Origin: Pseudomonadales bacterium
Lineage (GTDB): Bacteria > Verrucomicrobiota > Verrucomicrobiia > Limisphaerales > UBA11358
Reading direction: 5' to 3'
Assembly: GCA_035500235.1 (NCBI GenBank)
Contig: DATJXK010000177.1
Coordinates: forward strand, 1 to 62,999
DNA length: 62,999 nt
Positions 8,936 to 56,810 of this stretch are shown here, piece by piece. Both the position numbers and the translations under genes were made by a program. A model generated the notes under the pieces. The model did not search any database and was not told where the DNA came from. It saw only the letters and a list, made by a program, of their open reading frames with translations. Each line of letters begins with the position of its first letter. Within the stretch, counting starts at the first letter, position 1.

Positions 8936-9075
8936 CGACGACCGCGACGCATGCAACTGTAGTTCAAACCTCCCTGGCTTTTTAAGAATGGCTTCTGGAA
9001 CAGGGTGTTACCAGAGCTGGTGATCTTTTGCCTTAACCTATTCGCTCGCTGGGCGGAAGGCCCGGCGACCGCAGA

Positions 9076-10038: not shown

Positions 10039-10072
10039 CTTCTTTGGCAGCCGGAAACGGCTGCCAAAGAAG
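10039..10072 (-). terminator. Intercistronic stem-loop between giant lectin 1 and pseudopilin 1 (attenuator/processing/stability element; not a canonical terminator)
   Basis: CTTCTTTGGCAGCCG GAAA CGGCTGCCAAAGAAG forms a perfect 15-bp stem with a GAAA tetraloop. It lies 18 nt after the stop at 10091 and 27 nt before the ATG at 10011. No U-tract follows on the minus strand. Confidence 0.55.
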
Positions 10073-13000: not shown

Positions 13001-13135
13001 TGAGCCGTTGGGAAATGCTCCTGAGATAGTTGGCTGAGCAATAGCACTCTGACCGAAGAAGGCCAGGGCTGCCACGAGGCCTACTGAGGATGCAAAGGAT
13101 TTCATTTGCGAAATAAATGGATGGTTCTTTTTCAT
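10091..13135 (-). CDS. Giant secreted non-catalytic protein: 3 x (Ig-like + CBM6/35-like module) + C-terminal FY.. domain
   Basis: 1014 aa with a signal peptide (SVGLVAALAFFGQSAIAQ). Three tandem ~300-aa modules lie at about nt 13033-12146, 12145-11198 and 11197-10316. Each has WEAEDFDF / WEAEDWDY / LEGEDYDY and W(G/A)NYTRHYP(P/A)G.YN(V/I). The 69-aa tail (10091-10300) ends in NHRFYLVQIHQ. Confidence 0.85.
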   Translation of the reverse strand: MKKNHPFISQMKSFASSVGLVAALAFFGQSAIAQPTISGAFPNGSYQFQYSKTLTFTAASSAGIANVSVKLTPTTVFGVQGFPQTLTSSSGLTITGNANNQNVTAPLITNTLYAAQIIVTDINSASTTNNLSFDTISPAYTWEAEDFDFTSNSIAGLFVDNPQTNAYAGKASTSGVDYNNTSPGQGNSDYRPQGLETEGAGDVPRLPYMGSGKSDYDLGFNNGGNWGNYTRHYPPGQYNVFVRAADGNGPQSNAGDISVVAGTASFANSGPYYYSVKSTGWQTYGWYSLVDSTGSPAVLTVPNDGTASTLRMTIDGGNCNENFFMLLPLNTNIPPVGAGYVTNEFPDGTYQFQQTNTFNCSVISSNGVNNIVVEVQGNSLTGGAFSQTLTPSSGLTVTGNSTNKSVSFLLTTDAVYSLTFLITDGANNGSTATLSFDTINPNYYTWEAEDWDYNGGGYFDNPQTNAYFGYNGVENIDSYCQGGPGHNSYSRGTVGDDANLNTEPNGDIPRLSYLNTTNPIDDLPFIDFDIGFTSGGQWGNYTRHYPAGVYNIYVRSANGNGNATANAGSFSLVTSGYGSANQTLSQLGTFNAPATGNWQKYTWSPVMNSGGYPARFAGTNNVLQTLRMSFINAGCNLNFYMLVPANLNNNPPPFVSNFSPDGTAMFQPSNTVSFTANSSVGFTAGNISLYLNGVKQSGLTISGSAFASTVSCAIPTNQLYTAIVVLTDSVGTTAYTNSFATFSASDYQLEGEDYDYTSGGVTGQFFDNSVDAYANLGSTAGVDMLEADPNAFSRPYAYRPNNGINFPDQTSGDLPRAQFASGTDYAMGSFGQDSWANYTRHYPAGTYNVIGRFAEGAAPTHAGLAILTAGYQTPSQTTRALGTFSIPLGGWSSYEWVMLNDANGNPAKVTLTGNQQTLQLQGTTVNGEQEVNVNFLLLTPTSPSPYVTTSVSGGSFHLSFFAQTGWTYQVEYKNNLMDPAWTPLGASISGNNTVQTVSDPLSVNHRFYLVQIHQ

Positions 13136-13188: not shown

Positions 13189-13208
13189 TATCCCCGAAAG
13201 CGGGGATA
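13189..13208. promoter_or_regulatory. ATCCCC-loop-GGGGAT hairpin, copy C (TATCCCCG AAAG CGGGGATA)
   Basis: Perfect 8-bp stem, 53 nt upstream of the giant lectin ATG (13135). It is about 260 nt from the previous gene's stop, so it is not a 3'-end element. Confidence 0.6.
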
Positions 13209-16655: not shown

Positions 16656-16671
16656 TCCCCGAAATCGGGGA
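16656..16671. promoter_or_regulatory. ATCCCC-loop-GGGGAT hairpin, copy D (TCCCCG AAAT CGGGGA)
   Basis: 6-bp stem, 10 nt after the GH3 stop (16682) and 120 nt upstream of the beta-helix glycosidase ATG (16535). Confidence 0.55.
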
Positions 16672-21370: not shown

Positions 21371-21388
21371 ATCCCCGTTTTGGGGGAT
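21371..21388. promoter_or_regulatory. ATCCCC-loop-GGGGAT hairpin, copy E (ATCCCC GTTTTG GGGGAT)
   Basis: 6-bp stem with a 6-nt loop, 92 nt upstream of the GH92 ATG (21278). Confidence 0.55.
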
Positions 21389-22440: not shown

Positions 22441-22462
22441 GCATCCCCAAAAGCGGGGATGC
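22441..22462. promoter_or_regulatory. ATCCCC-loop-GGGGAT hairpin, copy F (GCATCCCC AAAAGC GGGGATGC)
   Basis: 8-bp stem in the divergent region between the esterase ATG (22407, 33 nt away) and the DUF5703 ATG (22523, 60 nt away). Confidence 0.6.
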
Positions 22463-24847: not shown

Positions 24848-27001
24848 TTACGGTGAACGATCTATCTTGGACAATTGACCATCCTTGTATGGTTTCAACG
24901 AATGGCTTGGAGTTCCTGTTGAAATCGTTGCAGTGCTGACAGGCGCATGCCAGACGAGTGAATCCTTCACGGATGTTTTGCCTTTATTACCAACGGCCAT
25001 AATCTCGTTTTTTCCCGGGGACAACGTCAACGGCCAGGTAAAAATGCAATTAGTGCTCGTCACTGTTCCCTGGGATTTGCCATTGAGGAAAAGTTCCACC
25101 GAATCGCAATTGGCATAGGCTTTAGCCATCACGCTATCGGTCAGGCGATTGGTAAAAGTATGGCCGGTAATGTAAACCATGGGATTCGTCGTCCAATTGG
25201 CCTTATAAAAATAGAACGCATCCTTGCGCGTCTTGCGGTCATAGGTCACAAGGCCTTTATCATTGCGGCCCGGGGTATCGCCTTCATTACGGCCGGCCAC
25301 AGCAAAATCAAACATCGTCCATTCGAATTTGCACCACAGGAACGGCCGCGCCTGCATCTGCTGCCAATGAATTTCGTGGTAGAGGTTCTCGTATTCTTCC
25401 GGATGATAATGGCTTTTGTTTTCGGGTTCGGTCACGGGGTTCTCGCTGTGCTGCATAACGCTGCCACCGGCGCCGTACTCACTCACACCAATGCAATGCG
25501 TGGGATAGTTGGAATGGATATTGTCCGCCCACGGACCAAACTCGCCCAGCTTGCCATTGTACCAGCCGAAGTATTTATTAATGGCATTCAATTCTGTACG
25601 CCAATTGGATGGCTCATCGTCGCTCGCGTTAGCGGCAGAAACGGTAAAGCGAGTGGGATCCTCCTGCGCGGCGAGTTGCGCCAGTTCAGTGACGAGTTTT
25701 ACCGGCTTGGGACCAGGCCTTAAAGTGATTTCATTGAACACGCCCCAGCAGACCACGGATGGATGGTTATAGCGCTGATGGATGAGTTCAGTGAGTTGTT
25801 GCTTGGCGCTCGCATAAAAGGCGGGAGATTCGGTGATGCGATTGATCAACGGGATTTCGCTCCAAACAACAATTCCATATTGGTCGGCAAGCTGATACTC
25901 GTAATCGTTGTGCTCATAGTGGGACATGCGGACGGCGGTGGCCCCAATTTCTCTCAGCAACTTGAAGTTTGTTTCTCGCTCCGCGTCCGATACGGCCCAG
26001 CCGTGATTGGGCCAATCCTGGTGCATGCTGACGCCGTGAAGGTCGTAGTGGCAGCCGTTGAGGAAAAAGCCTTTGTTCGGATCCACACTGAAATAACGAA
26101 AGCCCAACCGCTGGGTGATAACGTCCACAACTTTTGAGCCGCGACATAATTCAACATGTGTTTGATATAAATACGGATCGGCGAGGCCATTCCACAGATG
26201 AGGATTGGGGATAGTCGTGGCGGCGATGATGTTTGAGGCCGATTGCGGGGGGAGAGTCGCGATGTTCGTGAGAACGGCGACAATTTTTTTGTCAGCGTCG
26301 GTGACGATGCTACGGACCATGATGGATTGCGCGGCCGCCGTCGAGTTCGAGATCACGGCGGTGACTTGAAGCTGCGCGGAATTGGAGCTGACATCGGTCG
26401 TTTTTAAATAGACTCCTGAGGAACTATAGTTCAGCGGCGAGATTTGCACGGGATCGGTGACCAACAGATGAACATCGCGATAGAGGCCGCCAAAAAAGGT
26501 AAAATCAGCGTCAAGCGGAGGGATGTTGGTGTTGACGGCATTGCTGACTTTGACCGCAATGACGTTGTCCTTGCCAGGATGAAGATAAGGAGTGGCATCA
26601 TAAGTAAATGCCGAAAAACCGCCCTGATGCTCGCCTAAAAAACTGCCATTGATGTAAACGTCCGTGACAAGGAATGCCCCGTCAAATTTGAGGAACAAAT
26701 GACGGTCCCGCTCGCTCCGGCTCACGGAAAGGTGTTTTCGATACCAGCCAATACCGCGGTAATAATTCGTATTACCTTCCTGGCCGTCATAATTATTCCA
26801 GGTATGCGGCAGGTTCAATTTGGTCCATGAGGCATCGTCAAAGGACGCGTCTTGCGCGCCGGCGACGTCCTGCCGGATGAATTTCCAGCCGGAATCCAAA
26901 TTTACATCCTGCCGGTTACCTTTGGCCGGATGATAATTCTGCGCGACCACCGGCATCGCCAGGAGCGTAAGGAGAACGGTTGCCAGATAAATTCGAATCA
27001 T
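24848..27001 (-). CDS. GH2 glycoside hydrolase (beta-galactosidase/beta-glucuronidase family)
   Basis: ATG at 27001 (MIRIYLATVLLTLLAMPVVAQ). Alternative starts are at 27028 and 27049. Motifs: NLPHTWN, RMSHYEHNDYEYQLADQYGIVVWSEIP, NHPSVVCWGVFNE and SEYGAGG. Confidence 0.9.
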   Translation of the reverse strand: MIRIYLATVLLTLLAMPVVAQNYHPAKGNRQDVNLDSGWKFIRQDVAGAQDASFDDASWTKLNLPHTWNNYDGQEGNTNYYRGIGWYRKHLSVSRSERDRHLFLKFDGAFLVTDVYINGSFLGEHQGGFSAFTYDATPYLHPGKDNVIAVKVSNAVNTNIPPLDADFTFFGGLYRDVHLLVTDPVQISPLNYSSSGVYLKTTDVSSNSAQLQVTAVISNSTAAAQSIMVRSIVTDADKKIVAVLTNIATLPPQSASNIIAATTIPNPHLWNGLADPYLYQTHVELCRGSKVVDVITQRLGFRYFSVDPNKGFFLNGCHYDLHGVSMHQDWPNHGWAVSDAERETNFKLLREIGATAVRMSHYEHNDYEYQLADQYGIVVWSEIPLINRITESPAFYASAKQQLTELIHQRYNHPSVVCWGVFNEITLRPGPKPVKLVTELAQLAAQEDPTRFTVSAANASDDEPSNWRTELNAINKYFGWYNGKLGEFGPWADNIHSNYPTHCIGVSEYGAGGSVMQHSENPVTEPENKSHYHPEEYENLYHEIHWQQMQARPFLWCKFEWTMFDFAVAGRNEGDTPGRNDKGLVTYDRKTRKDAFYFYKANWTTNPMVYITGHTFTNRLTDSVMAKAYANCDSVELFLNGKSQGTVTSTNCIFTWPLTLSPGKNEIMAVGNKGKTSVKDSLVWHAPVSTATISTGTPSHSLKPYKDGQLSKIDRSP

Positions 27002-27076
27002 GCCTTTCAAATGAAATATGCGGCCCATATCAGGGACAGTTTTTGACATAAGATAAATACGCCAAGATGTTTATAC

Positions 27077-27094
27077 ATCCCTCTTTCGAGGGGT
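27077..27094. promoter_or_regulatory. Hairpin copy G, compensatory variant (ATCCCTC TTTC GAGGGGT)
   Basis: 7-bp stem including one G-U pair. It abuts the response-regulator stop codon (27095) and lies 75 nt upstream of the GH2 ATG (27001). Relative to copies A-F, both arms changed together: CCCCG/CGGGG became CCCTC/GAGGG. Confidence 0.55.
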
Positions 27095-27748
27095 TCATAT
27101 AAGAGATTTGGAACGTCCCTGGAGATGGATGATCCCGCGCTGGATGGCCGTGGTGACCGCTTCAGTGCGGTCGGCGACCTGGAGCTTTCCAAGGATATTT
27201 TTTAAATGATCTTTTACGGTGTGTTCGGAAATGTTCAAGGTATCGGCGATTTCCTTGTTGGCGCGGCCCTTGGCCAGCTCGTTTAACACATCCACTTCGC
27301 GGGAGGTCAATTGCTCGCGAATTTTTCGCAACTCAAGCTGGCTGGCGACGTCCTTGGGAATCCAATTTTGGCCGGCGGCAACAGTGCGGAGCGCGGGGAC
27401 TAATTTATCACCGGTCGTATTTTTCAAGACATATCCCTGGGCGCCTGCCTGGAGCGCGCGGTAAATATCTTCGTCTCCATCAAACGCGCTCAAAACCAAA
27501 ATACGCGCGTCGGGAAATTCAACACGGATTTCGCCGATGGTTTGGATTCCGCCTTTGCCAGGCATTCTTAAATCGAGCAAAAGTAAATCGGGACGGTGGC
27601 GGGTAAACAACGTGAGGGCTTCATTGCCGTCCGCCGCTTCGGCAACGACTTCCATGTCGGCCTCGGTATTCACGAGCGCCGTCAACCCCATGCGAACGAT
27701 GTAGTGGTCGTCCGCGATCAATATTCGAATTTTATCTGATTTTTTCAC
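27095..27748 (-). CDS. NarL/FixJ-family response regulator (REC + LuxR-type HTH)
   Basis: 217 aa with a GTG start at 27748. The start overlaps the kinase stop by 4 nt (GTGA). REC motifs: ILIADDH and LLLLDLRMPG. HTH: LTSREVDVLNELAKGRANKEIADTLNISEHTVKDHLKNILGKL. Confidence 0.92.
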   Translation of the reverse strand: MKKSDKIRILIADDHYIVRMGLTALVNTEADMEVVAEAADGNEALTLFTRHRPDLLLLDLRMPGKGGIQTIGEIRVEFPDARILVLSAFDGDEDIYRALQAGAQGYVLKNTTGDKLVPALRTVAAGQNWIPKDVASQLELRKIREQLTSREVDVLNELAKGRANKEIADTLNISEHTVKDHLKNILGKLQVADRTEAVTTAIQRGIIHLQGRSKSLI

Positions 27749-30009
27749 GCGATGGTAGAAGCATCCTGACTGGTGGCTGCCTGAAGTTCCAGGTCCGAGT
27801 GCAACGGAATATTCACCCGAACCAGGGTTCCTTTTCCGGGCTGGCTGGAAACAGTAAACTGGCCGCCAATGCGTTTGGCGCGCTCAGACATCCCCAGCAG
27901 GCCGAAGTGACCTTCGTTGGGACCGACGGCGGTTTCGCGATCAAACCCAACGCCATTGTCTTTGACCTGCAGGCTTACCTGTTTCCGTTCGAATTGCAGT
28001 TCCATATCCACATCAGTAGCCCGGGAGTGCTTGATGATATTGGCGAGGGCTTCCTGGCCGATGCGGAGGAGATTTTCTTCCACGACTTCCGGAAGCGCCT
28101 GCGGTTCGCCCCGGGTTTCAAGCCGGACTTTGATATCGGTGCCGCAAGTGATTTGCCGCGAGCCTTCCGCCAAGGCGCTGGACAAATCGAATTGCTCCAG
28201 GGCGCGGCTGCGCAGGTCCCAAACGGAGCGACGGACTTCTATTTGGCCGCGGGCCATCATGCTGCGCGCCAGTTCCAGATGATGCAGCGAATTATCCGGC
28301 TTGCGATCATGCAGTTTGGAGGCGGTATCCAACTGCAAGGCGATGCCGGTGAGGGTTTGTTCGACCGTATCGTGCAGTTCCTGTGCCAGGCGGGTTCGTT
28401 CCGTCAAAACGGCTTTGAACTGCACTTCGGATTCTTTACGGGCGGTAATCTCAAATTTTAATTGTTCTGTCCGCTCTTTGACGCGCAGTTCGAGATCGTC
28501 GTGCGCCTGTTGAAGGGCGGTTTGCGCTTTTTCCCGGTCGCGAATGGCAAAATTTAACGCGGCATTCTTTCGTGAAAGGATCAGCGTCCAGCTCACAATG
28601 ATAAACAACGCCGAACTCAGGATAAGAAAACCAATTAAAAGGCGATGGGGGGTAAGCCAGCTAGGCTTTTTTAGGACAACTACATCATCGGCATCAGGAA
28701 TAAGGATCTGCAACGATTGCAATTTGCCGGCATTGTCAATTTGGGTGAGGGCGATTCCATTTACCTTCACCGTGCTGCCGATGGCGAGGCTGGCCAATTG
28801 CGCCTGGCCGGGAGCATTTTCCGCAACAGCCGTGTAGGTGAAATTGCTGCTTTGCAATACCAGCACTGTTCGTCCGGGCGTGGTGGCCGTGCCGGCGTTG
28901 ACAGTCAGGTCAATGAGGCTGCCGGAAATAGAAACATAGGTGGCGTGGTAAAGACCGTTTTCCACGTCCTGAGCCGTAGCCGGCTGAGGCTGCATGGGGA
29001 CAGGCTCCTGCTGGGACCTTTCGATAATGGCATCCTGCAAAACGGGAAGATAATTCTCAAAACTCAAAAAGCCCACGGCGTCCACAACATCGCCCGGGTT
29101 CAGCTCGGTTCGTTGGCGTGTTTGCACCTGGAGGCCGAATGTTCCATTTTGCAGAAAAACACGCTCACCCGGCTGTTGAAAGACCACGACGCCGTGAACA
29201 TGGACCCGTTGGGCCAGGGAATTGTCCGGACGAAACTGGGCCAGCTTATTGAGCGGGACAACCGGGCGATCAAAGGGATTGATTGATTCGGGTTTTTCAA
29301 TGACCAGGTCCGACGAATTGGGAATATAAATTTCCACGGCGATCAACTGGCGCAGGGAGCGATTGTGTGCTTCCGCCGCCGTGCCGCGGACCAACGCCTG
29401 CGCGCCGATGAGGGCTTTTGGTTCGAATCCTGAAGCCGAAGGCAGGAATGCACGGAAGCGGTAGCCGCCGCTGGCCATATCCAGCGTCAGCCGGCCGCCA
29501 TCCAGGCGGGCGTCACGAATGATTCCCGAAATTTCTATTCTCTGGCTGTCCTCGGCGCCGGACATCAATTGTTCGATGGAAACAGGTTTGGCGAGTGGCA
29601 AGGGACCTTTTTTTAAAATATGCACGGTAGGCGCGGTCACTGTAGGGGCGAATGCACCGGCGTAGGTGATTCCGGAAATTTCCACTACATCGCCCGGGTC
29701 CACGTGAAGGCCGTTGATATTGTCTACGAATACGCCGCCGGTGGAATCCTGGAAGAAAAAGCGGCCTTTCAAAACAGGATCGGAAGCGGTGACTACGCCG
29801 GTGACATGGACTTTCAACATGCGCGAGGCCTGTTCGGCGGGCAACGAAATGACATCGGCGGCGTTGGTCAAAACGGGGACGGCTGGCTGGGCAAAAACGG
29901 GAGCAGCAAAAAACAGGAGACAAAAACAAAAGCCCCGAAACAGCGCCGGGCAGAAACCGGCGTCCAAGGCAGAAACGCTCAAACTTTTATGCCTGTTGAT
30001 AATCTTCAC
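27745..30009 (-). CDS. Sensor histidine kinase (large periplasmic domain, HisKA_3 + HATPase_c), partner of the NarL-type regulator
   Basis: 754 aa. The first codon at 30009 is GTG, so the exact start is uncertain. A ~440-aa extracytoplasmic region carries repeated OB-like segments (VHVTGVVT..PGDVVEISG and VHVHGVVV..PGDVVDAVG), followed by a TM and a coiled coil. H-box RLAQELHDTVEQ. ATPase boxes ANIIKHSRA, DNGVGF and GHFGLLGM. Confidence 0.88.
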   Translation of the reverse strand: MKIINRHKSLSVSALDAGFCPALFRGFCFCLLFFAAPVFAQPAVPVLTNAADVISLPAEQASRMLKVHVTGVVTASDPVLKGRFFFQDSTGGVFVDNINGLHVDPGDVVEISGITYAGAFAPTVTAPTVHILKKGPLPLAKPVSIEQLMSGAEDSQRIEISGIIRDARLDGGRLTLDMASGGYRFRAFLPSASGFEPKALIGAQALVRGTAAEAHNRSLRQLIAVEIYIPNSSDLVIEKPESINPFDRPVVPLNKLAQFRPDNSLAQRVHVHGVVVFQQPGERVFLQNGTFGLQVQTRQRTELNPGDVVDAVGFLSFENYLPVLQDAIIERSQQEPVPMQPQPATAQDVENGLYHATYVSISGSLIDLTVNAGTATTPGRTVLVLQSSNFTYTAVAENAPGQAQLASLAIGSTVKVNGIALTQIDNAGKLQSLQILIPDADDVVVLKKPSWLTPHRLLIGFLILSSALFIIVSWTLILSRKNAALNFAIRDREKAQTALQQAHDDLELRVKERTEQLKFEITARKESEVQFKAVLTERTRLAQELHDTVEQTLTGIALQLDTASKLHDRKPDNSLHHLELARSMMARGQIEVRRSVWDLRSRALEQFDLSSALAEGSRQITCGTDIKVRLETRGEPQALPEVVEENLLRIGQEALANIIKHSRATDVDMELQFERKQVSLQVKDNGVGFDRETAVGPNEGHFGLLGMSERAKRIGGQFTVSSQPGKGTLVRVNIPLHSDLELQAATSQDASTIA

Positions 30010-30094: not shown

Positions 30095-31105
30095 TTATGG
30101 AAATTGAAGATTGCGGGTCTGCACGGAACTATTCGCCGACTGCAAGGTCGCTGTCCCGTTTGCGCCCGCAGATGCCGTCGTGTCATGAGTTGTTTTATTT
30201 TCGTCTGTGGTGGAAACCGAGCCTGCGGGAGCAGACGGATCCACTGTCTGGCCATAAACGCGCACATATTTTATTTGCATGTCACCGGGAAAAACGGTGG
30301 TCTCATCCGGATTACCGCCAAAATTACCCCCGATGGCGAGGTTCATGATAATATAAAATGGCTGGTTAAAGGGAGCCGGATAGGGATTGTGCTCATGAGA
30401 ATTCTCCTGGCTCGCGCTCCACCAGTTCGTTTGGGTTTCGTAGAGATGGTTATCCACATACCAGGAGATGGCATTAGTGCTCCATTCAACGGCGTAAAGA
30501 TGAAAATTTCCGACCGAATCACCCGAAGGAAAAGTGAACCCGGGGTTGTGTGATTCGGCGTTGTGCGGAGAAACCCCTCCGAAATGGATCGTACCAAAAA
30601 TCTTTTCCGGCTCAACGCCTTTGTTTTCCATGACATCAATCTCGCCGGAGGCGGCCCATCGCCCATAGACTGCCTCTTCAGGCATCATCCAAAGAGCGGG
30701 CCAGTAGCCCTTGCCCTGGGGCAGCCGCGCGTAAAATTCAAAGCGTCCGTATTTTTGGCTGAAAAGGCCGCGGGTCTTCAATTTTGCCGACGTATAATTT
30801 TGGCCCTTAAAATCCTCTTTGCGCGCGACAATATGAAGCATGCCGTCGGCGACATAAACGTTTTCCGGACGGCTGGTATAATATTCCAATTCCCGATTGC
30901 CCCATCCCCCGTTACCGTTGCCGCTGTCGAAAATCCAATTGTTAGTATTAATCGTGTTGCCGCTGAAATCATCACTCCACAGCAGTTGCCAGCCGGCCCG
31001 GGCCGGCTCCATGCCGGCGATGAGAATGCCTGCAGCCATACATCCTAACATCACAAGATGAATCGGGAATGAAGTGCGCTGCCACCATGAAAGTCTGATT
31101 GCCAT
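30095..31105 (-). CDS. GH16 endo-beta-1,3(4)-glucanase (laminarinase-like)
   Basis: ATG at 31105 (MAIRLSWWQRTSFPIHLVMLGCMAAGILIAG). The track start at 31141 is TTG. Motifs: GNGGWGNRELEYYT and WPALWMMP. Catalytic motif GEIDVMENKG (ExDxxE). Confidence 0.9.
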   Translation of the reverse strand: MAIRLSWWQRTSFPIHLVMLGCMAAGILIAGMEPARAGWQLLWSDDFSGNTINTNNWIFDSGNGNGGWGNRELEYYTSRPENVYVADGMLHIVARKEDFKGQNYTSAKLKTRGLFSQKYGRFEFYARLPQGKGYWPALWMMPEEAVYGRWAASGEIDVMENKGVEPEKIFGTIHFGGVSPHNAESHNPGFTFPSGDSVGNFHLYAVEWSTNAISWYVDNHLYETQTNWWSASQENSHEHNPYPAPFNQPFYIIMNLAIGGNFGGNPDETTVFPGDMQIKYVRVYGQTVDPSAPAGSVSTTDENKTTHDTTASAGANGTATLQSANSSVQTRNLQFP

Positions 31106-31179
31106 TTTTAACTCATTCCCTCCGTCTCCTTTTGGATTCAACGCTTAAAAATACTGGTTATAGTTTTGCGCCAATTTAG

Positions 31180-31995
31180 CTACGGTGATGGCATCAGCGA
31201 ATTCATTCGCTGCAACATGAGCGCAGGGAAATCCCGGCTATCCTGATAGAAATAGATATTCCTGTCCCCATCTGTCTGCCACGAAGTGATCAGACGCATT
31301 TTCGCAATGGGTTCCCATGATGCCGAACCATCGACAAACGATTCATTGCCGCCATCGGGATACATCGAACGGGCGCTGTGATGTTGCGGCAGGTTCACGT
31401 AACATTGCGGATTGCCATAATCCTGCGATACCGGCATGCCCCATCCATTTAATCCTTTCATGACGGCATCCGCGGAAAAGACCCACCATGGTTTGGATTG
31501 GCTCATTTTTCGAGGACTGTTGCCCCAACACCCGCTTGATTCAACCGGATTCACCCAATTGGTATCGCCGCCGAAATATTGGTAGCCTATATTCCATTCA
31601 GTAAAAGCCGGCGCATAGTTGGGAAGGGTCGGCCGTTCCGGGCAACTCCAAACGGTTGGTGCATTGGTGGGCACTCTCAAACCGATGGAACTCAAGCCAG
31701 CGGCATCGCTTATGTTGAGGTCCAGTTGCACAAACGGGAGTTTAGGCCCACTGGTTCCAGAGGTGTTAGCGCGACAAGTAAGAACTAAATCGTTATTATC
31801 GCCAGAATAAATGATCATTCCTGTGGCGAGCTGTTTGGTGTTGCTTAAGCATTCAATACGGAGAGCCCGTTCTTTAGCGGAAGAGAGAACAGGCAATAGA
31901 ATAGCGGCCAAAATGGCGATGATGGCAATGACGACCAATAACTCAATCAAGGTGAAAGCGCGGCGTCTTTCATTTTGTGTTCCGGATATATTCAT
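31180..31995 (-). CDS. Prepilin-type N-terminal methylation-domain protein, divergent H-X9-DG family member, pseudopilin 2
   Basis: ATG at 31995 (cat at 31993-31995) gives [44 protein letters not shown]. The track start at 32118 would overlap the upstream gene. The C-terminal motif is degenerate: [13 protein letters not shown], which is Y-X9-DG instead of H-X9-DG. Confidence 0.85.
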
Positions 31996-32026
31996 CTTTG
32001 CTGGTATCTCAAATATCTTTGGTTTC

Positions 32027-32054
32027 GCCGTCGCCCCTCTTTCAGGGCGACGGC
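32027..32054 (-). terminator. Intercistronic stem-loop between giant lectin 2 and pseudopilin 2
   Basis: GCCGTCGCCC CTCTTTCA GGGCGACGGC forms a perfect 10-bp stem. It lies 23 nt after the stop at 32078 and 31 nt before the ATG at 31995. The geometry matches 10039-10072, and there is no U-tract. Confidence 0.5.
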
Positions 32055-32077
32055 ATTGACACATCCCTGGCTGTCGA

Positions 32078-35000
32078 TTATTGGACAGACAAGAGATAGA
32101 AGCGGTGGTTTTGACCAAGGCCGTCGCTCACTGACTGCGTCAGGCCGGTGCCGTTGACCGTGGTTCCCAGCGGCGTCCAGGCAGGATCGTTCAGATCATT
32201 CTTATAAGACACAGCGTATTTGAACCCGGTTTGCGTGGGGAACGAGAGGACAACATTGGTTCCTACGACGGATGATCCCAATTTTACGGTGCCAGCCGGC
32301 ACGAGCATGAAGAAGTTCACACGTTCGAAGCCGTCACCCGTGACCTGCAACGTCTGAATCCCGCTGATAGGAAGCTGGATGTGTGTGCCGGTGTTAGTAT
32401 TCATTAGCGGGGCATATTGATACGAGCCGTAGCTGTTGCCCATGGCCTGGAAGTAACCAATGACGTTCGTAGTTTGCGTCGAAGTACCAGCACCACTGGT
32501 TACCTGAGCACATTGGAACGTGATATTGCTGGTACCGCCGGCTGAAAGCCGGGCATAGACATAGTAATTGCCGGCAGGGAATGTGTGGGTGTAGTTGATC
32601 CAGGCGGTATTCGTCAGGTTGAAGATTTCATAGTCCTGGATATAGGGATTGGCTTGCTGCACCTGCGCATTGGCCGTCCTCGCCCGTTGCGCATCCGCAG
32701 TCACTTGAATGGGAACTATGTTATTGAGGTTCTGGGCGCTCGTGCGGTACACCGCCGGAACGGGGAGCACGTTCAGATTGATGAATTGCGAAGAATAGTC
32801 GATGTCCAAATCACCAGTCTGACCATAATAACTGTTCGTGGCCGGAGCGGAAGTGGGTACCGGACTATCAATATAGCGCAGGTTGCTGTTATTCGGGTCA
32901 GGGCTATTGGCCGGGTCGAAGTCAAAGTCTTCGGCCTCCCAAGTGAAGTTGGTCGAATTGAAGGTATCAAAGCTCACCGTGGTGGTATGCACCTGATTAT
33001 TATTGTCGGTGACAGTAATAACGGCGGTGTAGGAGGAGTTAGGTTGCAGGCCGGGATAGCTGACATTCCAGCTTCCAGAATTACCACTGAAGACCAAGCC
33101 TGATGAAACGTTGACGCCGTTGAGGGTCACTTGAACGTTGGTCGTATTGATGCCGTACGTCGGGCTGCTGGCAACAAACGACAGAGCATTGGTGCCCTGC
33201 TCCAGTAATGAGCCATCGGGATAAACCGAGTCCACGCGCGCCTGGTCGGTACGAGCATTCAACAACATGTAGAAGTTGACGTTGAGACCGTATGCCGCGC
33301 CATTGGGCGTTTCCGTTTGGTTGAAGACCAAATGCGTATCACGGAGAGTATTGGTGCCATTGAGGCTCAATTGCGCCACATTGCCGAAACGGTCTATCAA
33401 CGGGGCATAGAAGTATGATGAATAGCCGCCGCTGGAGGGAATGGCGTAGGTACCAAGGTGCTGGGTGATTTGATTGGAGGTACCCCAGCCACCAACAACC
33501 TGGGAGAACGATGAATAGAGATTGCCCAGGTTAGCGCCGGAAGCGACGCGAGCATACAGGTTATACGTACCCGAAGGCCAGGTGCGGGTATATTGTTCCC
33601 AATGGCCGGCACCGAGGAAGCCGACATTGTAGTCCAGCGTGCCAGAACCGAATTGCCGGCGGGCGGCATCGGTGACAGGCGCAGTAGCGCACGGGTCGTT
33701 GGTGCGGTAGTTCGACATGGTGGCCCCGGCGAATCCGGCCTGGATGGGAGATTGTCCGTTCAATGGGGTGTTATTGCCCGATTCGTCGATGAGAATGTCG
33801 CCCACTTGTCCTTCATAGCTGTTAGCAGCAGGGGTTCTGGGCGGTGTGGGCACTGAATTATCAATAAAGCGATGACCTGTGCCGTTGGGAATCGGACTAA
33901 ACGCAGGATCAAAGTCAAAGGCTTCCGCTTCAAATTGGAAAACAGGATTCCAGGTATCAATGCTCAACTGCGCATTGGCACTGTTGCCGTTATTATCTGT
34001 TACCTGAATGGCCACATTATAGCTTTGGTTCAACTGCAATGTAGGATAGCTGACATTCCACGTCGTCGGGCCGCCGCTGAAGACGAGACCAGAGGAGACG
34101 TTTGTGCCATTAAGGGTCATTTGGATATTGGCGGTGTTGATGTTCGCCGATGAAACGGCGGTAAAGACCAATTTATTGGTCGCTTCAAAGAGGAACGCGC
34201 CATCCGGATAAATACCGGTGATGGCAGGCACGTTGGGATTCACCGGCACGAACATAAAGAAGTTCGCGTTGGCACCGCCGCCAGTAGTCGCACGGAAAGT
34301 AGCCACGCCACCTGCGCCGCCGTTGATTGTGACTTGCGCCAAAGCGCCGCCCTGTCGCAACGGCACCCATTGGAAGCCACCGTTTCCGGTGAAGGTGAAT
34401 TGTCCGACGCGGGACAACGTCTGGTTCAGCGTGCCCTGCCCCGCGGTGACCTGGTCAAAGCTCACGGTAGAACCGCTGGAGGTAGAAAGGCGGGCGTAGA
34501 CATTGTAACTACCCGGCGGGAAAGTCTTGGTATAATTCTGCCATTCGGCGCTCGACCAGTTGCCGACCATGTGACTCGGCACCACGCCGTTGCCAAATCG
34601 CGTGGGCGAGGGCAATTCGCCCGTTGATAACGGAGTCTGCACATTCAATCCAGTGCCATCATCGAAGCGATAAGCATTGAGCTGGTTATCGCCAGTGGAT
34701 TGGCCTTTGTGCGCGTCAACGCCTTCAGTGTAACCATTGCCAAAATAACTATTCGGGTCGCCAGGTACGTTGGTGTAATCCGGGTTGTCAAGGAACATGC
34801 CGTTCGTGAAATCGAATTCTTCGGCTTTGACAATAAAGTTGGTGGGGCTAAACGTGTCGAATGTCACCGTGGCAGAACCAACGAGGCCGAGCGCATCGCT
34901 CGCCGTCATCACCGCGGTCTCGATGGTTTGCTGCGGGAGGCTGTTGTAGTACACCGTCACGTTGGTCGAGCCGGTACCGTTGGTCACATAGGTGCAGGAC

Positions 35001-36094
35001 GAAGAAACGTCTATGTTATTTAGTTTGAGATCGATATTCGTCAGGCCAAATCCGCTGGGAGCGATAGCGGTAAATACGAATTTATTTGTCGCCTGCAGGA
35101 GCGACGTGCCATCTGGATAGGGCCCGCTGATAGAGGGTATCTTGGGAGCAATGGTTTGGCGAATGCCTTCGACGAAGCTCAGCTTGTTTGTCGCGATGCC
35201 TTTATAGAAACGAAAATCCTCCATCCAGCCGTCAAATCCGCGAGCGCCTTTGTAATTTCGATTGCCGACGACGAGCGTGGTGGGATTGCCAAAGGTCTCG
35301 ACCAAGCCGGGAGCAGCAAACTGATTTTGGAGGGCCGCCGCCGCCGTGTCTGAACCGGTATATTGATAGATGTTTGTCCCGTCGTAAACCCAGGCCACAA
35401 AATACCATTTATTAGTGGTGAGATCGCTGGCGTACGTGGTGGTCAGAGTGCCGCCGGCCGTGCTCCCGATGGCGAAAATAAATTGATTCGCCTGCTGGAA
35501 TTTCACGCCGATGGAATTAGCGCTGCCGTCATTCGCGCCCGGCGAGCCTCCCGCGCTCAGCACAAAAGGCCGGGGAAGCACAAAACCAGAGCCGCTCGGC
35601 GCTTTCACCGGCTGGTTAAACCAGAAGGTCACGATGAAATTTGAAACGCTGCCAAAAGCCAGTGCGGGATCTCCTAAATCAGCCGCAGAATTGGCGGCGT
35701 TGGCAGTCGTCGGCGGATTCGGCGCGTTGGCCGGCTGGCTTCCCCCGGCTCCGTTAGTCATGCACAACGTCGCCATCCCGGTCACCAACCCATTTACTCC
35801 CGACCCGGCGGCGCCCTGGAAATCAGTACTCGCACCGGCAGCATTGTATGCGCTCAGGTTGACACTGATGCCCCCGAGCGTTGTGGAGCTAGGGAAGCTC
35901 GTCGTCGCCGTGCCCGGTGCATTGGTAAGGGGGAAAAACAGCAAGTTAACCGGTTGAGCCAGCGCCAGCGTGCTCATCAGGAGGCCGCAAAAAATCAGTG
36001 CGGCCAGCAGCTTCCCGAGGACGGTTTTAAACCATTCATTACTAGACAGAAATGAATGACGGATATCTGAAGAATCAATGGGATCGGTTCTCAT
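32078..36094 (-). CDS. Giant secreted non-catalytic protein: LamG + 3 x (Ig-like + CBM6/35-like module) + C-terminal FY.. domain (paralogue of 10091-13135)
   Basis: 1338 aa with a signal anchor ([18 protein letters not shown]). N-terminal LamG: [27 protein letters not shown]. Three modules carry KAEEFDF / FEAEAFDF / WEAEDFDF and W(Q/E/I)(N/Q)YT(K/R/H)T(F/W)P.G.Y(N/Y)(V/L)YAR. The 69-aa tail (32078-32287) ends in [10 protein letters not shown] and aligns with the tail of 10091-13135. Confidence 0.85.
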
Positions 36095-36244
36095 ACAGGC
36101 GTTTGGGTTGGCAGTTAGGCTAAATGACTATGAACTTAGGGCTATCGTTAGTTGTTCTGTAATTTCTATTGGCGGCACTTAATGGGCCGGTCTGCGTATT
36201 TCAGGCTATGAAAAGAACCTAGCAGCACGGCCTAAGTGTAAGCA

Positions 36245-36260
36245 TCCCTCTTTCGAGGGG
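36245..36260. promoter_or_regulatory. Hairpin copy H, compensatory variant (TCCCTC TTTC GAGGGG), overlapping a second GGGGG-TTTT-CCCCC hairpin
   Basis: It lies in the divergent region between the giant lectin 2 ATG (36094) and the dehydrogenase ATG (36420). The G-run at 36057..62 cannot pair both ways: bases 36057-36062 can pair with CCCTC (36046-50) or with CCCCC (36067-71), i.e. coordinates 36257-36262 versus 36246-36250 or 36267-36271. Confidence 0.5.
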
Positions 36261-41029: not shown

Positions 41030-43204
41030 TTAAAGCACGACCGACAGTGTTTGGGGTTGCGCAATGTTTTCAAATCGAATCCAAAGCAGCTTATCTTTGG
41101 GAGAATAAGTAAAATCTTCCAGTTTTTTCCCGTCCAAAGTCACGGCTTGCGGAGCCGCAGACAATCTCAACAGTACAATTCCAGGCGTTTCGCCAACGCC
41201 ATTAACCGTGAAAGTGATTTGATGAGGGGTTTGTTCCTTTACCAGCGTCCGGCAGGCGGAGGCCAGGAACGGTGTGGGATTATTCGTCACGGCATCCAGG
41301 TCGAGCAAAAATTCGCGAGTGCCCGGAGTAATGGAAACTTTTGTCAGCACGCACAATTCCGGGTCAAAAAGATCCACGTAATGCCCGGTCAGAACGCGGG
41401 GGTCGCCACCGATGGATTCATCCAATCCCGAAGCAATAACGTAAGGCCCACGACGAAGTAAAAGGTAGTTGGTCTCGCGCCACGGCAGGCCGATTTTGTC
41501 TGCCGCGGAATGGGCGGTATTCACAATCCGGTCGGCGCCATCCTTACTCAAGGAAAAATCAACGGGGCGGTCCTTCAACCAGATAAGGCCGCCTTTACCG
41601 ATGCGATTAAATGTTTCCGGAGCGATGGAATTATCCAGTCCAAGCAATCCAAAAAGATGCTCACGGGGCGTGGCATAATGATTGCCATTGCTGTTCCACC
41701 ATTCGTGAACGTTCAGATAAGGGTCGGCATCATTGTCACAAAAAACCAGCACGCCGCCCTGCTTCACCCAATCCACCAATGGCGGGTGAACTTCCGGTGA
41801 CAATGGCTTTTGGCCGTCGTAGCTCAAAAAAAGAACATGAAATCCATCGAGATAATGTGGAATGGTCACATTTTCGAGTTGGACAGGAGTAGCCGAAATA
41901 CCGTGCATGACCAGGGGCATCGCCAGGCCGTAAACATTGCCTAAGTACGGGTCACTGGGTGTCGGCTCACCACGTTGAAACATCAGTGAATCGCTGACCA
42001 AAACTCCGATGCCGGTCGTGCCACAATCCCACGCAACATGAGGTTGCTTCATGTCGTTCAGTGTATTGAAGACAGTTTGTAATTCTGTGGCGTACGCCGG
42101 TGGAATGGGATTCCGTTCTTCAGGCGGAGCCGAGCGCGGATATCGTCCGCCGAAAACGCGCTCGGGCCAAGGAGCCACTTCGAACCGCGACACGTCCGGC
42201 TGAAACAGGGAAGCGGTCAGAGTGGATTCCCAATTCCTGCGGTAATCTGCCCAATCGTAATTCGGATTATCTTCAATCGGATCATTTAAATACCAGACGG
42301 AACGGCCCGTGGAGCGAACCAAATTTTGCATGGCGCCATATTCTAAGAAGGCCGTTTCAAATGTTCGTGAATGCACTTCGCCCTGATAACGATTCGGCTC
42401 GCGCGAGGTGCCGGTCCAAACCTGGGCAATATAACCGTTGCAACCATTGAGCAGAGCCAAACTGGATTCGGGACTTACGATGCACCACTGGGCGTAGTTC
42501 AGCAGACTATGCGTCGGCACAAAGCATTGGACATCGCGTCCGGTCTGCCGATTGTAATCCTGCACAAAGTCGAAGACCTGCTGCAACGCCCGGCGATAGA
42601 GAAAATATTTTAACTTACCGGTGCGCCAGCGGGCATCCACTGAACTATGCGGCGGCGCCCAGTCATCGCCATAATAATTATGCCATTCGCGTTTGAAACC
42701 ATCCTCGTAGCCAGCCCGATCCCAAAATTCCGGTTCTTCCAAATAAATCGCTTCCGCACCAGAGTCCAGAGCGCGCTTAACTCCGACGCAAAGAAATTTC
42801 CCGTAGTTTATCCCGGGGCACATATAATATACGTCGCCGCCGTGACCAATTTTATTGCCATTGCGGTCCGTTTGCGCTTCGTCCTCATGATTGGTCCCGT
42901 CAAAGCGGCCATACAGATAATCCTGGTATTCGCCCCACGCCACCCCGGTCATCACCTGAATATGGTAGCCGTGATCCCGCCACGTTTCGATACGTACGGG
43001 CAAATTGGTATCGATGCCATAAACAATCGAGACATCCGAAGCCAAATTACCCTGCGGGGTCCACGGCTTGCCGGTTTGAAAACAGGTGTTTTCGACGGGC
43101 TGGTTTGTACCCGCAGAAGAAGGCACGGGATCTTCAGCGCAAACCCGAAGAGTCAAAGCGAGCAAAAGGGTTACGCAGATAGATTTGTTTGGGATAGATA
43201 ACAT
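41030..43204 (-). CDS. Secreted protein of unknown family, possible TIM-barrel glycoside-hydrolase-like enzyme
   Basis: 724 aa with a signal peptide (ICVTLLLALTLRVCA). I recognise no family signature. Features compatible with a (beta/alpha)8 glycosidase: AIYLEEPEFW and NGYIAQVWTG. The C-terminal part (VLVFCDNDADPY) resembles the amidotransferase-like domain of GH42-type enzymes. It sits inside the mannan operon. Confidence 0.4.
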   Translation of the reverse strand: MLSIPNKSICVTLLLALTLRVCAEDPVPSSAGTNQPVENTCFQTGKPWTPQGNLASDVSIVYGIDTNLPVRIETWRDHGYHIQVMTGVAWGEYQDYLYGRFDGTNHEDEAQTDRNGNKIGHGGDVYYMCPGINYGKFLCVGVKRALDSGAEAIYLEEPEFWDRAGYEDGFKREWHNYYGDDWAPPHSSVDARWRTGKLKYFLYRRALQQVFDFVQDYNRQTGRDVQCFVPTHSLLNYAQWCIVSPESSLALLNGCNGYIAQVWTGTSREPNRYQGEVHSRTFETAFLEYGAMQNLVRSTGRSVWYLNDPIEDNPNYDWADYRRNWESTLTASLFQPDVSRFEVAPWPERVFGGRYPRSAPPEERNPIPPAYATELQTVFNTLNDMKQPHVAWDCGTTGIGVLVSDSLMFQRGEPTPSDPYLGNVYGLAMPLVMHGISATPVQLENVTIPHYLDGFHVLFLSYDGQKPLSPEVHPPLVDWVKQGGVLVFCDNDADPYLNVHEWWNSNGNHYATPREHLFGLLGLDNSIAPETFNRIGKGGLIWLKDRPVDFSLSKDGADRIVNTAHSAADKIGLPWRETNYLLLRRGPYVIASGLDESIGGDPRVLTGHYVDLFDPELCVLTKVSITPGTREFLLDLDAVTNNPTPFLASACRTLVKEQTPHQITFTVNGVGETPGIVLLRLSAAPQAVTLDGKKLEDFTYSPKDKLLWIRFENIAQPQTLSVVL

Positions 43205-48403: not shown

Positions 48404-49300
48404 TTATTGCTCCATGGGACCGGAACCGGGAAGCCAAGATACCGTCCAGGTTACTTCTGTATGAGGATTGTTATCATTGTTCCAACGCGCACGCCACATC
48501 ATATTGTTGGGATCAATCACATCATTTCGGTGCGGGGATTCCACATGCCCATCCGCAAACACGATGTCGGTATTAAAGCTATGCCGGTTGCAGGGAACCT
48601 GCGGGTGCCAGGTTGGATCTTGTGTCGTAGTCCAGGAAGTCGGAGGAGTGGTGTTGGCGCTGTACATAATTTGGCCGGAGGGCGTGTCAGAGCGAACATC
48701 GGCGACGACGATCATGTCGGAAGGATGGCGCACGATGATTTCTTTGACTGGCGGAGTTCCAACGTCTCCTCCCATTCCCAGAACCGTGGCCCAGCCCATA
48801 TTTAATCCCCAGTCATTCCAACCATATGAAAAACGAGTTCCATTCAAGCCGGGGTCACCAGTAAGAATACCAAATTGATCCAGTTTGCCATTTTCACCAA
48901 TCACGGATTTGACGGTCGTGTTGGCTACATTATCCCAGGCACTTTGCGGAAGGGCGGCGGGGCAATAGAAGGCCTTCCGGCCGCCGGTATAATTCAGAAG
49001 GCGCGGTTGCCACACATAATAGGCCGACGCATTATTGGGTTTGCTGAGACAACTGGGATACACTCCGTTAAAATCACTGGGATACATGGAAATGGCGAGG
49101 CCAATCTCGCGCAGGTTATTAATACAGGAAGTTTGTTGGCCACGCTTTTTGGCCTGATTTAAAACGGGCAACAAAATGGCGGCCAAAATGGCGATAATGG
49201 CGATAACCACAAGCAGCTCAATGAGCGTAAAGCCGCCCGCCCTTTTCCGATTAGAAAACGGATACTGTCCAGAATGAAATCTATTCCCTTGCACGTTCAT
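48404..49300 (-). CDS. Prepilin-type N-terminal cleavage/methylation protein of the H-X9-DG family, pseudopilin 3 (first gene of the mannan operon)
   Basis: 298 aa. Canonical G|FTLIE site: [39 protein letters not shown]-terminal [16 protein letters not shown] is H-X9-DG. Only 42 nt separate it from the next gene. Confidence 0.9.
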
Positions 49301-56549: not shown

Positions 56550-56668
56550 TCAATTTGATGGCAGCGTTTCGAATTCAAACAGTCAGGGTCCAAACGGGCA
56601 GATTCTACGTGCATATTGCATCGCTGAAATGATGGACATGATTTGACTATAGGCCTCAGTCGAAAAAG

Positions 56669-56694
56669 TGTCATGTGGCATGAAGTGGCCACAA
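56669..56694. promoter_or_regulatory. Conserved 26-nt box, copy 2 (TGTCATGTGGCATGAAGTGGCCACAA)
   Basis: Matches 49421-49446 at 25 of 26 positions. It lies 119 nt from the LamG giant ATG (56549), upstream of or within the 5' end of the DUF1680-LamG gene. Confidence 0.5.
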
Positions 56695-56810
56695 GGCATA
56701 AACCAAAGTTATGTTATTATCTTCAACGAGTTAATTTCACCTTGAAAGATACCGCTGATATGCCGGATCGATTCTTTAGCACTTATAGAAACAATCTTAC
56801 TCTCTCTAAG

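Follow-up and report, generated by a model that had tools for sequence, protein, structure and literature searches.

The window analysed here is a stretch of 62,999 nt (contig DATJXK010000177.1 of assembly GCA_035500235.1; all positions refer to this whole stretch), and the subject of this report is its cassette 2, in which a gene for a giant lectin is followed by a GC-rich stem-loop and a gene for a type IV pilin-like protein. With a probability of roughly 55%, we consider cassette 2 to be the non-catalytic front end of a two-component-regulated operon for beta-1,3-glucan utilisation, in which the lectin has the pilin-like protein as its cassette-specific partner. Judged from the genes and their relatives, lectin and pilin very probably act as functional partners in the regulated capture of glycan. 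The further proposal that this partnership involves direct contact between the two proteins, for display or secretion, is more tentative, and the odds would be somewhat against it.

Cassette 2 and the genes downstream of it all lie on the minus strand, with the following features.

36243-36260, minus: Box A1 (CCCCTCGAAAGAGGGATG), candidate operator in the form of an imperfect 7-4-7 inverted repeat
32078-36094, minus: giant lectin copy 2 (lectin 2), 1338 amino acids (aa), with LamG, three Ig+CBM6-like modules and a tail
35198-35647, minus: LamG/concanavalin-A-like domain of lectin 2 (PF13385)
32300-33232, minus: module 3 of lectin 2, an Ig-like domain plus a CBM6-like beta-jelly roll (AlphaFold2 and Foldseek)
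32081-32287, minus: C-terminal 69-aa beta-sandwich tail of lectin 2 (six strands in the AlphaFold2 model)
32026-32055, minus: GC-rich stem-loop copy 2, with 10 Watson-Crick and two G-U pairs and a 6-nt loop
31180-31995, minus: pilin-like protein (pseudopilin 2, class A; here pilin 2), 271 aa (PF07963, TIGR02532)
30095-31141, minus: GH16 laminarinase-type endo-beta-1,3-glucanase with signal peptide (PF00722)
27745-30009, minus: sensor histidine kinase (HisKA_3 and HATPase, from a profile scan)
27095-27748, minus: LuxR/NarL-type response regulator (receiver and GerE helix-turn-helix)
27076-27093, minus: Box A2 (CCCCTCGAAAGAGGGATG), identical to Box A1
24848-27049, minus: GH2 glycosidase (beta-galactosidase/beta-glucuronidase-like) with signal peptide

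The gaps between these genes are short (38 nt from the pilin 2 gene to GH16, 85 nt from GH16 to the kinase and 45 nt from the regulator to GH2), and the kinase and regulator open reading frames (ORFs) overlap by 4 nt. A first-pass annotation of this DNA had already given the order of lectin, hairpin, pseudopilin, GH16, kinase/regulator pair and GH2, and every factual element of it that was checked proved correct.

Recurrence and co-divergence of the lectin-pilin pair

A scan of one genome per species yielded 76 related loci from 58 Verrucomicrobiota assemblies, with genes called by our own ORF heuristics, and 69 lectin homologues in these loci could be evaluated. The first-pass annotation had named orthologous loci lacking the pairing as one observation that would speak against its proposal; on inspection, a pilin-like gene directly follows the lectin homologue in 51 of the 69 cases (74%). 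These paired pilins are 250-300 aa long and are encoded on the same strand as the lectin, with a median spacer of 87 nt. As a background, a pilin-like gene follows only 9 of 738 genes whose products lack the tail, which places the lectin-pilin adjacency about 60-fold above this rate. Only three of 22 other, non-lectin genes that do encode the tail are followed by a pilin-like gene, and the idea that pilins follow any tail-bearing protein was therefore dropped.

The cassette pilin is usually the sole pilin motif within about 24 kb of its locus, and the gene calls of an independent pipeline give the same order in the three loci that we designate L077, L078 and L079. Four or more paralogous classes show the arrangement amid differing neighbouring genes, and 15 assemblies carry two to four cassettes each. 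Cassettes are also present in the closed genomes OW818681.1, OY760937.1 and OY969416.1. A search from the side of the pilin mostly found a lectin upstream. Among the matches listed, 22 pilin homologues are on contigs of the same size as the contigs of lectin homologues, and on three further pilin contigs the lectin upstream is intact in one case, frameshifted in another and missing in the third. The claim that the linkage is selected and not accidental is thus strongly supported, by recurrence in 58 species genomes, by its presence in at least four classes and by the 7-fold enrichment of hairpins described below.

The two genes have also diverged in parallel. With distances taken as simple identities on MAFFT alignments, lectin and pilin distances are correlated with a Mantel r of 0.77 (reached by 0 of 2000 permutations), and the partial Mantel r given the linked kinase is 0.72 (again 0 of 2000). 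When each protein set is divided into five clusters (k=5), the adjusted Rand index (ARI) between lectin and pilin clusters is 0.92. The kinase co-diverges with the cassette classes as well (r = 0.79 with lectins), and the co-divergence of lectin and pilin is tighter than that of either with the linked kinase. Pilins are the fastest-evolving of the three proteins, with a mean distance of 0.65 compared with 0.53 for lectins and 0.44 for kinases.

Class A pilins follow the LamG-bearing orthologues of lectin 2 and are characterised by the motif [FY]PAGGNEVFxDG and a C-terminus of the form ...CYFYQDxxDFP. Pilins of classes B and C, which include that of the second cassette in the window (copy 1), have both FxDENPxSxNDG and a genuine H-X9-DG motif. 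By hhalign, the homology of B and C is clear (E 3e-41). Comparison of class A with classes B and C gives E values of 0.17-0.3, with 0.17 against class B, which is no statistical link, and the X9-DG region nevertheless lines up. Similarly, the two pilins of the window are alike by BLASTP only in their N-terminal 62 residues and around X9-DG, and nowhere else. The co-duplication of lectin and pilin that the first-pass annotation had proposed is therefore well supported among the classes as a whole (by the Mantel tests, the ARI and the comparison of B with C), but cannot be demonstrated for the two copies of the window, and the class-A pilin may have arisen either by fast divergence or by replacement.

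The nearest relatives of cassette 2 are found in Verrucomicrobiota metagenome-assembled genomes of the Limisphaerales/Pedosphaera type. Cassettes are also present in bins labelled Bifidobacteriaceae, Bathyarchaeota, Acidoferrum, Sulfotelmatobacter, Acidiferrales and Limnocylindria (loci L007, L009, L012, L022, L027, L028, L034, L035, L041, L047, L054, L072 and L075), and these non-verrucomicrobial labels are probably errors of binning or labelling. There are two complete lectin-pilin cassettes only 4 kb apart in L017 (976-5810 and 10031-14787), and in L013 (854-5070) three pilin-like genes lie close together on one strand upstream of the cassette. In L080 (2679-6778) a class-A pilin is preceded by a lectin broken into four or more frames beside a DDE transposase gene, which reflects either a decaying cassette or frameshift errors in long reads. 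Two genes 3' of the lectin, one cassette class encodes a small conserved secreted protein, about 260-285 aa long (L063 14962-15738; L072 8833-9609; L075 13639-14415; L065 15535-16380; L070 17090-17944), whose C-terminus resembles a PEP-CTERM signal (VPEP..., a hydrophobic stretch and basic residues).

Lectin, stem-loop and pilin-like protein

Lectin 2 begins with a Sec signal peptide (residues 1 to about 46, ending in ALA before QP) and continues with a LamG domain (residues 150-299), three modules that each combine an Ig-like and a CBM6-like domain (318-618, 622-948 and 955-1265) and the tail (1270-1338). The modules are related to each other, with 42% identity between modules 2 and 3 (E 2e-61) and 36% between modules 1 and 3 (E 3e-39). 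The first-pass annotation had described the protein as a paralogue of copy 1 (10091-13135) with an alignable tail and an extra N-terminal LamG domain, and this description holds. The two lectins share 31% identity over 1083 columns (E 3e-97), and their 69-aa tails align as had been quoted. The LamG region matches PF13385 (Laminin_G_3) with E 2.8e-9 and 37.7 bits, above the gathering cut-off of 27.6 (E 7e-11 when the N-terminal part is scanned alone), and copy 1 has no LamG domain.

The label CBM6/35-like stands at the level of fold but not at that of Pfam membership. The best match of lectin 2 to the CBM6 family PF03422, in module 2 (E 0.09), reaches 13.5 bits and remains below the gathering score of 28.9; PF03422 matches are present in distant relatives of the whole lectin. 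An AlphaFold2 model of residues 955-1338 has a predicted local distance difference test score (pLDDT) of 86, and Foldseek matches its module 3 with probability 1.0 to the CBM6 structures 1gmm, 1o8p, 1uy1, 2cdo and 5fui, the last of which is the CBM6 of laminarinase LamC. Template-modelling (TM) scores for these five superpositions are 0.56-0.68 (target-normalised), with root-mean-square deviations of 2.4-3.5 over 115-140 columns. There is no catalytic Pfam domain in lectin 2, and the possibility that it is a cryptic GH16-like enzyme was dropped, as the ExDxxE motif is absent.

The distribution of the 69-aa tail indicates that it is a generic Fn3-like C-terminal domain and not specific to the cassette. 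Its profile, which takes in about 35 residues of the preceding domain, identifies 17,062 representative clusters of proteins ranging from 100 to 3100 aa, almost always at the extreme C-terminus and sometimes in tandem, and the proteins with tandem tails give weak fn3 matches. The tail of the lectin itself has no Pfam or NCBIfam match in scans at E up to 5-10. A marginal match of the profile to part of a discoidin domain among PDB sequences (E 1e-3) was treated as uninformative, and a word-indexed search with the profile returned just 28 short unnamed fragments. Many genes neighbouring the related loci also end in the tail. Within the window, the GH43 gene at 3573-5219 (minus) ends in the same type of tail (...ARFYRVRSL), and the gene that follows it encodes a kinase and not a pilin. 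Three further large proteins rich in LamG and Ig domains are encoded at 52212-56549 (minus), 56643-61157 (plus) and 61177-62931 (minus); one of them is fused to a GH127-like catalytic domain, and none is followed by a pilin-like gene.

A stem-loop begins 23 nt after the stop codon of lectin 2, with about 30 nt left between its end and the ATG of pilin 2. The 10 Watson-Crick pairs that had been annotated at 32027-32054 are present, and the stem is lengthened by two G-U pairs to 32026-32055. The folding energy of the spacer is -31.7 kcal/mol (z = -4.9), and the corresponding values for copy 1 are -29.3 kcal/mol and z = -5.2. In the window, perfect GC-rich stems that reach 10 bp occur just three times, where 0.35 would be expected from shuffles, and two of these are in lectin-pilin spacers. 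Across the related loci, stems with a minimum length of 10 bp and a minimum of seven G-C pairs occur at 32 of 39 lectin-to-pilin junctions (82%) and at 25 of 202 other co-directional junctions (12%; Fisher p = 9e-18). About nine of these 25 control junctions follow lectin genes that have no pilin, which makes the stem-loop a feature of the lectin gene's 3' end and not of the pair.

The arms of the stem vary between loci yet remain complementary, with double compensatory changes in 10 of 14 pairs in an alignment of 13 class-B sequences, and a sequence core is conserved within each class. The possibility that the hairpin is an operator of the linked regulator was dropped: its arms differ between loci through compensatory changes while the regulator is conserved, which points to an RNA structure. 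Both window copies have the GC-rich stem of an intrinsic terminator (12 bp in copy 2 and 15 bp in copy 1) and lack the U-tract, being followed by GAAACCAAAG (copy 2) and CTCGTTAG (copy 1). Several class-B loci have a short run of three or four T residues 2-4 nt past the stem. We infer that the element is a leaky terminator or a 3' stabiliser that would favour lectin mRNA over the downstream genes. Scans of the window for consensus promoters and terminators gave results no better than shuffles, and no Rfam family matches anywhere in it. The third strong GC-rich stem-loop of the window, at 8613-8637 (CCCTCTCCCC/GGGGAGAGGG), likewise has no Rfam match; the 1-kb stretch in which it lies (8074-9075), between the convergent GH3-CBM6 and pilin-1 genes, contains no convincing ORF.

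The maximal ORF for pilin 2 spans 31180-32118, and a plausible start is the ATG at 31995, which gives a protein of 271 aa. It matches PF07963 (N_methyl; E 1.8e-8, 34.0 bits against a cut-off of 21.2) and TIGR02532 (31.6 bits against 16.3). A class III signal peptide is evident, with a short basic leader, a predicted cleavage site before FTLIE, F in position +1, E in position +5 and then a hydrophobic run of some 20 residues, which together make up the type IV pilin signature. This full prepilin signature is kept in all 55 cassette pilins, with G (41 proteins) or A (14 proteins) at position -1. As the first-pass annotation had noted, the conserved His is replaced to give Y-X9-DG, and class-A orthologues have F or Y at this position; thus, pilin 2 does not carry the H-X9-DG motif of DUF1559-type proteins and the copy-1 pilin does. 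The AlphaFold2 model of pilin 2 (pLDDT 85.5) consists of a helix at residues 17-67 followed by 12 strands that form a beta-rich head. Foldseek found no pilin, periplasmic-binding-protein or sugar-binding fold in the PDB for this model (best E 1.8), and the globular domains of both window pilins have no Pfam or NCBIfam match at E up to 5-10.

By these features, pilin 2 is best classified as a type-IV-pilin-like protein of an extended DUF1559/H-X9-DG kind. Prepilin-type H-X9-DG proteins of this kind, from Planctomycetota, Verrucomicrobiota and Lentisphaerota, are represented by PF07596 (DUF1559) and TIGR04294. Like DUF1559 proteins, pilin 2 starts with a prepilin motif, has a globular domain in the 200-250 aa range and carries X9-DG in its C-terminal part. 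It differs from them in lacking the His and in not reaching PF07596, which matches neither window pilin even at E up to 5, though some orthologues do reach it: about one third of pilin 2 orthologues carry precomputed PF07596 matches, one is named a DUF1559 protein, and the pilin neighbouring the lectin in L078 has a faint match. DUF1559 is a large paralogous family of unknown function, with 68 paralogues in Planctopirus (PMC10632474). No report of a systematic partner gene for DUF1559 proteins was found in the literature searched.

The window includes a third pilin-like gene, at 48404-49300 (minus), which has a true H-X9-DG motif and a weak PF07596 match and is not preceded by a lectin. It heads an operon that encodes a glutaminase-A-like protein, GH127, a protein of 724 aa, an aldose epimerase, GH125 and GH76, and that by its gene content looks like an alpha-mannan degradation operon. 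The 724-aa ORF (41030-43204, minus) has no Pfam match at E up to 0.1.

Operator boxes, sensor pair and linked enzymes

The Box A pattern has exactly two sites in the window, one before lectin 2 and one before GH2, where 0.14 sites would be expected. Box A1 is located about 150 nt upstream of the lectin 2 ATG and 12 nt from the ATG of a divergent dehydrogenase gene. Box A2 starts directly after the stop codon of the regulator, with 27 nt between it and the ATG of GH2 and with TATAAA coming next. When the regions upstream of lectin genes were searched for shared k-mers, AAAGAGGGAT was recovered in 19 of 21 class-A loci, and this sequence is part of an imperfect ATCCCTC-GAAA-GAGGGAT repeat. Among the 76 loci, about 30 of 49 Box A sites are located 43-192 nt before the lectin gene in a fixed orientation, and the box is also found before GH2-like genes in L005 and L012.

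The left arm of Box A varies between loci without compensation, and a protein-binding DNA site is therefore likelier than an RNA hairpin, including the tetraloop hairpin that was considered and dropped. Two other candidates were also dropped, a small upstream ORF and a sigma-54 promoter, since conservation extends neither to the ATG nor to the TGGCA-like bases that come after the box. The pattern fits a protein-binding site best, and Box A is a candidate operator of the linked LuxR-type regulator. Related but distinct variant boxes occur in the other cassette classes.

The sensor kinase is predicted to start with a membrane or signal segment and to continue with a periplasmic domain (about 410 aa), a second membrane segment (residues 452-480), HisKA_3 and HATPase. 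The periplasmic domain (28654-29886, residues about 42-452) has no Pfam or NCBIfam family match. In most loci the cassette is accompanied by orthologues of the kinase (46-73% identity) and of the regulator (62-87% identity), and the pair is located either downstream of the cassette, as in the window, or divergently upstream of it. The GH16 enzyme matches PF00722 (E 1.8e-19, 70.3 bits), and its best solved relatives are 3iln (E 2.5e-57), 3azx (1.8e-54) and 2vy0 (1.6e-50), of which the first two are laminarinases. The Pfam match and the closest solved relatives, which are endo-beta-1,3-glucanases, place it with the GH16 laminarinases. A GH16 gene directly follows the pilin in about 12 class-A loci. 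The first-pass annotation had suggested that the cassette is co-regulated with beta-glucan and galactoside enzymes. This suggestion gains support from synteny, in that GH16, GH2 and the kinase/regulator pair stay with the cassette, and from the identical 18-nt box before lectin 2 and GH2.

A second cassette (copy 1) and the box associated with it have these features.

10091-13135, minus: giant lectin copy 1 (class B), 1014 aa, with three Ig+CBM-like modules and the tail, without LamG
10039-10072, minus: stem-loop copy 1, 15 bp with a 4-nt loop
9076-10017, minus: pilin-like protein copy 1 (class B), with a true H-X9-DG motif
13191-13206, no strand assigned: Box B (ATCCCCG-CTTT-CGGGGAT), located 56 nt before the copy-1 lectin and one of six such boxes in the window

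The class-B box (TCCCCG-N4-CGGGGA) has six sites in the window (1725-1740, 5325-5340, 13191-13206, 16656-16671, 21372-21387 and 22444-22459), where 0.36 would be expected. All six are intergenic or in promoter regions of a block of carbohydrate-active enzyme (CAZyme) genes at 1.7-22.5 kb that includes GH43, GH3, lectin 1, PL-like, GH92 and esterase genes. This suggests a second, larger regulon that includes cassette copy 1, and a Y_Y_Y-type kinase encoded at 1752-3446 may govern it. From the distribution of boxes and genes, the window would thus hold two paralogous regulons, each with its own lectin-pilin cassette. The whole window is dense in CAZymes, with GH43, GH3, GH92, GH95-like, GH2, GH16, GH76, GH125 and GH127 enzymes. 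No SusC, SusD or TonB-receptor Pfam family was found in any window ORF of at least 200 aa. The adjacent SusC-like transporter and SusD-like genes that define polysaccharide utilisation loci (PULs) of the Bacteroidota type are accordingly not found here.

Interpretation, known systems and significance

In the reading that we favour, the multivalent lectin would bind the glucan polymer and GH16 would cut it. The kinase would sense glucan fragments in the periplasm, and its regulator would activate both A boxes, which would create positive feedback because the kinase and regulator genes are located downstream of the first box. The pilin, GH16 and regulator genes have no box of their own; the stem-loop might keep lectin mRNA in excess, with read-through supplying the pilin, GH16 and the regulators. 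A prepilin peptidase would process the pilin-like protein, and a machine of either type II secretion system (T2SS) or type IV pilus (T4P) kind would assemble it. The pilin would most likely mount or export the lectin at the cell surface. Alternatively, it might receive the glycan that the lectin has captured.

Several observations weigh against this reading. About one quarter of lectin homologues have no pilin, at least one class-A-like pilin has no lectin (L081), and the third pilin-like gene of the window heads its glycosidase operon without one. There is no secretion or pilus machinery in the window or the flanks examined. The scan for canonical terminators reports neither window stem, as the U-tract is absent, and Box A could bind a factor other than the linked regulator. 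In addition, pilin divergence tracks the CBM2 and CBM3 regions of the lectin (r = 0.81) and not the tail (r = 0.21), and a link through a shared substrate without direct contact would fit this pilin-CBM correlation equally well. The tail is the part least correlated with pilin divergence, and therefore the idea that it docks on the cognate pilin is unsupported; this idea was dropped, the tail also being present on many proteins without a pilin neighbour.

The same correlation (partial r of about 0.4 for the CBM regions) is in keeping with an alternative, which we rate as somewhat unlikely, in which a substrate-specific pilin works in parallel with the lectin. Its head would itself recognise glycan without contacting the lectin, and the pilin would form or cap a T2SS/T4P-like fibre for capture or uptake, or else specify secretion of the enzymes of the locus, such that its linkage to the lectin would reflect only shared substrate and regulation. 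A pilin of this kind could head a glycosidase operon on its own, as at 48404-49300, and could follow other genes, as nine pilin genes in the related loci do. The class-A pilin has nine Trp residues, several of them invariant, and Trp is common in sugar-binding sites. A pseudopilin is also part of the alginate-induced cluster of Verruconatronum alginivorum, for which the accessible portion of the source mentions no lectin (PMC13274419). This alternative leaves unexplained that the pilin comes right after the lectin, in fixed order, in 74% of loci and almost never after a glycosidase of these loci, and Foldseek detected no known sugar-binding fold in the pilin model.

Another role that has been weighed is that of a membrane-anchored periplasmic factor, either a chaperone or tether of the lectin or a binding protein that passes on oligosaccharides, and not a filament subunit. 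The Pfam family that some orthologues match has the short name SBP_bac_10 (DUF1559), no pilus or secretion genes are nearby, and the stem-loop implies that there would be less pilin than lectin, which is unlike a major filament subunit. However, all 55 pilins keep the full prepilin signature, which a mere anchor would not need, the model is beta-rich with no periplasmic-binding-protein fold, and no transporter is linked to the cassette; we consider such a role distinctly improbable. The absence of any functional link, with neighbours brought together by descent or chance and a hairpin that is an ordinary terminator or repeat element, is hardly credible: pilin-like paralogues are numerous in relatives (67 in Verruconatronum and 68 DUF1559 proteins in Planctopirus) and one quarter of lectins have no pilin, but the adjacency exceeds background about 60-fold, it is kept in 58 species genomes and at least four classes, co-divergence persists after control for the kinase, compensatory changes maintain the stem and only three such stems exist in 63 kb.

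The lectin-pilin pairing appears to be previously undescribed, and no description of the pairing, the stem-loop or the box was found in the literature searched. The closest published observation is a PulG-like pseudopilin with 67 paralogues that is encoded in the alginate-induced cluster of Verruconatronum alginivorum and is among the proteins over-expressed on alginate; in the portion of the paper accessible, its authors suggest just T2SS export of lyases (PMC13274419). As in cassette 2, a pilin-like gene from a very large paralogous family resides in a polysaccharide-degradation cluster, and the accessible portion of the paper describes no giant lectin, stem-loop, kinase/regulator pair or operator box (PMC13274419). 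The organism also differs in order (Opitutales) and in substrate (alginate).

Resemblances to other systems are partial. Surface glycan-binding proteins (SGBPs) of the SusE/SusF type are non-catalytic, PUL-encoded and substrate-regulated, with an Ig-like domain followed by tandem CBM-like domains. Lectin 2 resembles them in build and adjoins glycosidases, but does not belong to them: it has no lipoprotein box, there are no SusC/SusD genes in the window, and its partner is pilin-like. The regulator here is part of a classical kinase/LuxR pair, whereas Bacteroidota use a hybrid two-component system or an extracytoplasmic function (ECF) sigma factor. In type IV pili with tip adhesins (PilY1/PilC with PilVWX) and in the modular lectin-pilins of Streptococcus sanguinis, a large adhesin or lectin, coupled both genetically and physically to low-abundance pilin-like subunits, is placed by them on a filament. 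Unlike these systems, the cassette has a single pilin gene in place of a set of minor pilins, no PilY1 beta-propeller and separate lectin and pilin polypeptides.

The Verru_Chthon cassette (TIGR02596 and TIGR02599; proteins D and C) is likewise specific to Verrucomicrobia and encodes proteins with prepilin-type N-termini. The window pilins match these two models only over their N-terminal 27-39 residues, with 17-26 bits against cut-offs of 70 and 256, and the lectins match no NCBIfam model; it is therefore a different cassette. Finally, intercistronic stem-loops are known to set subunit ratios (papA, fimbrial major-subunit genes and the puf operon), through a hairpin after an abundant first gene and read-through beyond it. 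The stem-loop of the cassette is like the papA and puf hairpins in position, and differs in that no U-tract follows its window copies and that each class keeps its own sequence core.

Verrucomicrobiota and Planctomycetota are major degraders of polysaccharides in soils, peat, lakes and oceans, and their pilin-like paralogues, whose function is unknown, number in the tens to hundreds. To our knowledge, they do not possess the SusC/SusD machinery that explains glycan capture in Bacteroidota. A lectin-pilin pair that co-diverges within sensor-controlled glycosidase operons ties the question of capture without SusC/SusD to that of the pilin paralogues. It is a bold extension, and one we regard as unlikely, that the expansions of DUF1559/H-X9-DG pilins in Planctomycetes-Verrucomicrobia-Chlamydiae (PVC) bacteria are the specificity layer of a SusC/SusD-independent system of polysaccharide capture. 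If this were true, each utilisation locus would encode its own pilin, which would mount or cooperate with a giant multivalent lectin, and a dynamic T2SS/T4P-like fibre would fish glycan to the cell envelope. The lectin-stem-loop-pilin cassette would then be the first recognisable module of such a system. The pair occurs in Verrucomicrobiota of soil and peat and may show how polysaccharide is captured there without SusC/SusD, and together with the class-specific box it would provide a practical marker with which to find and classify verrucomicrobial utilisation loci in metagenomes.

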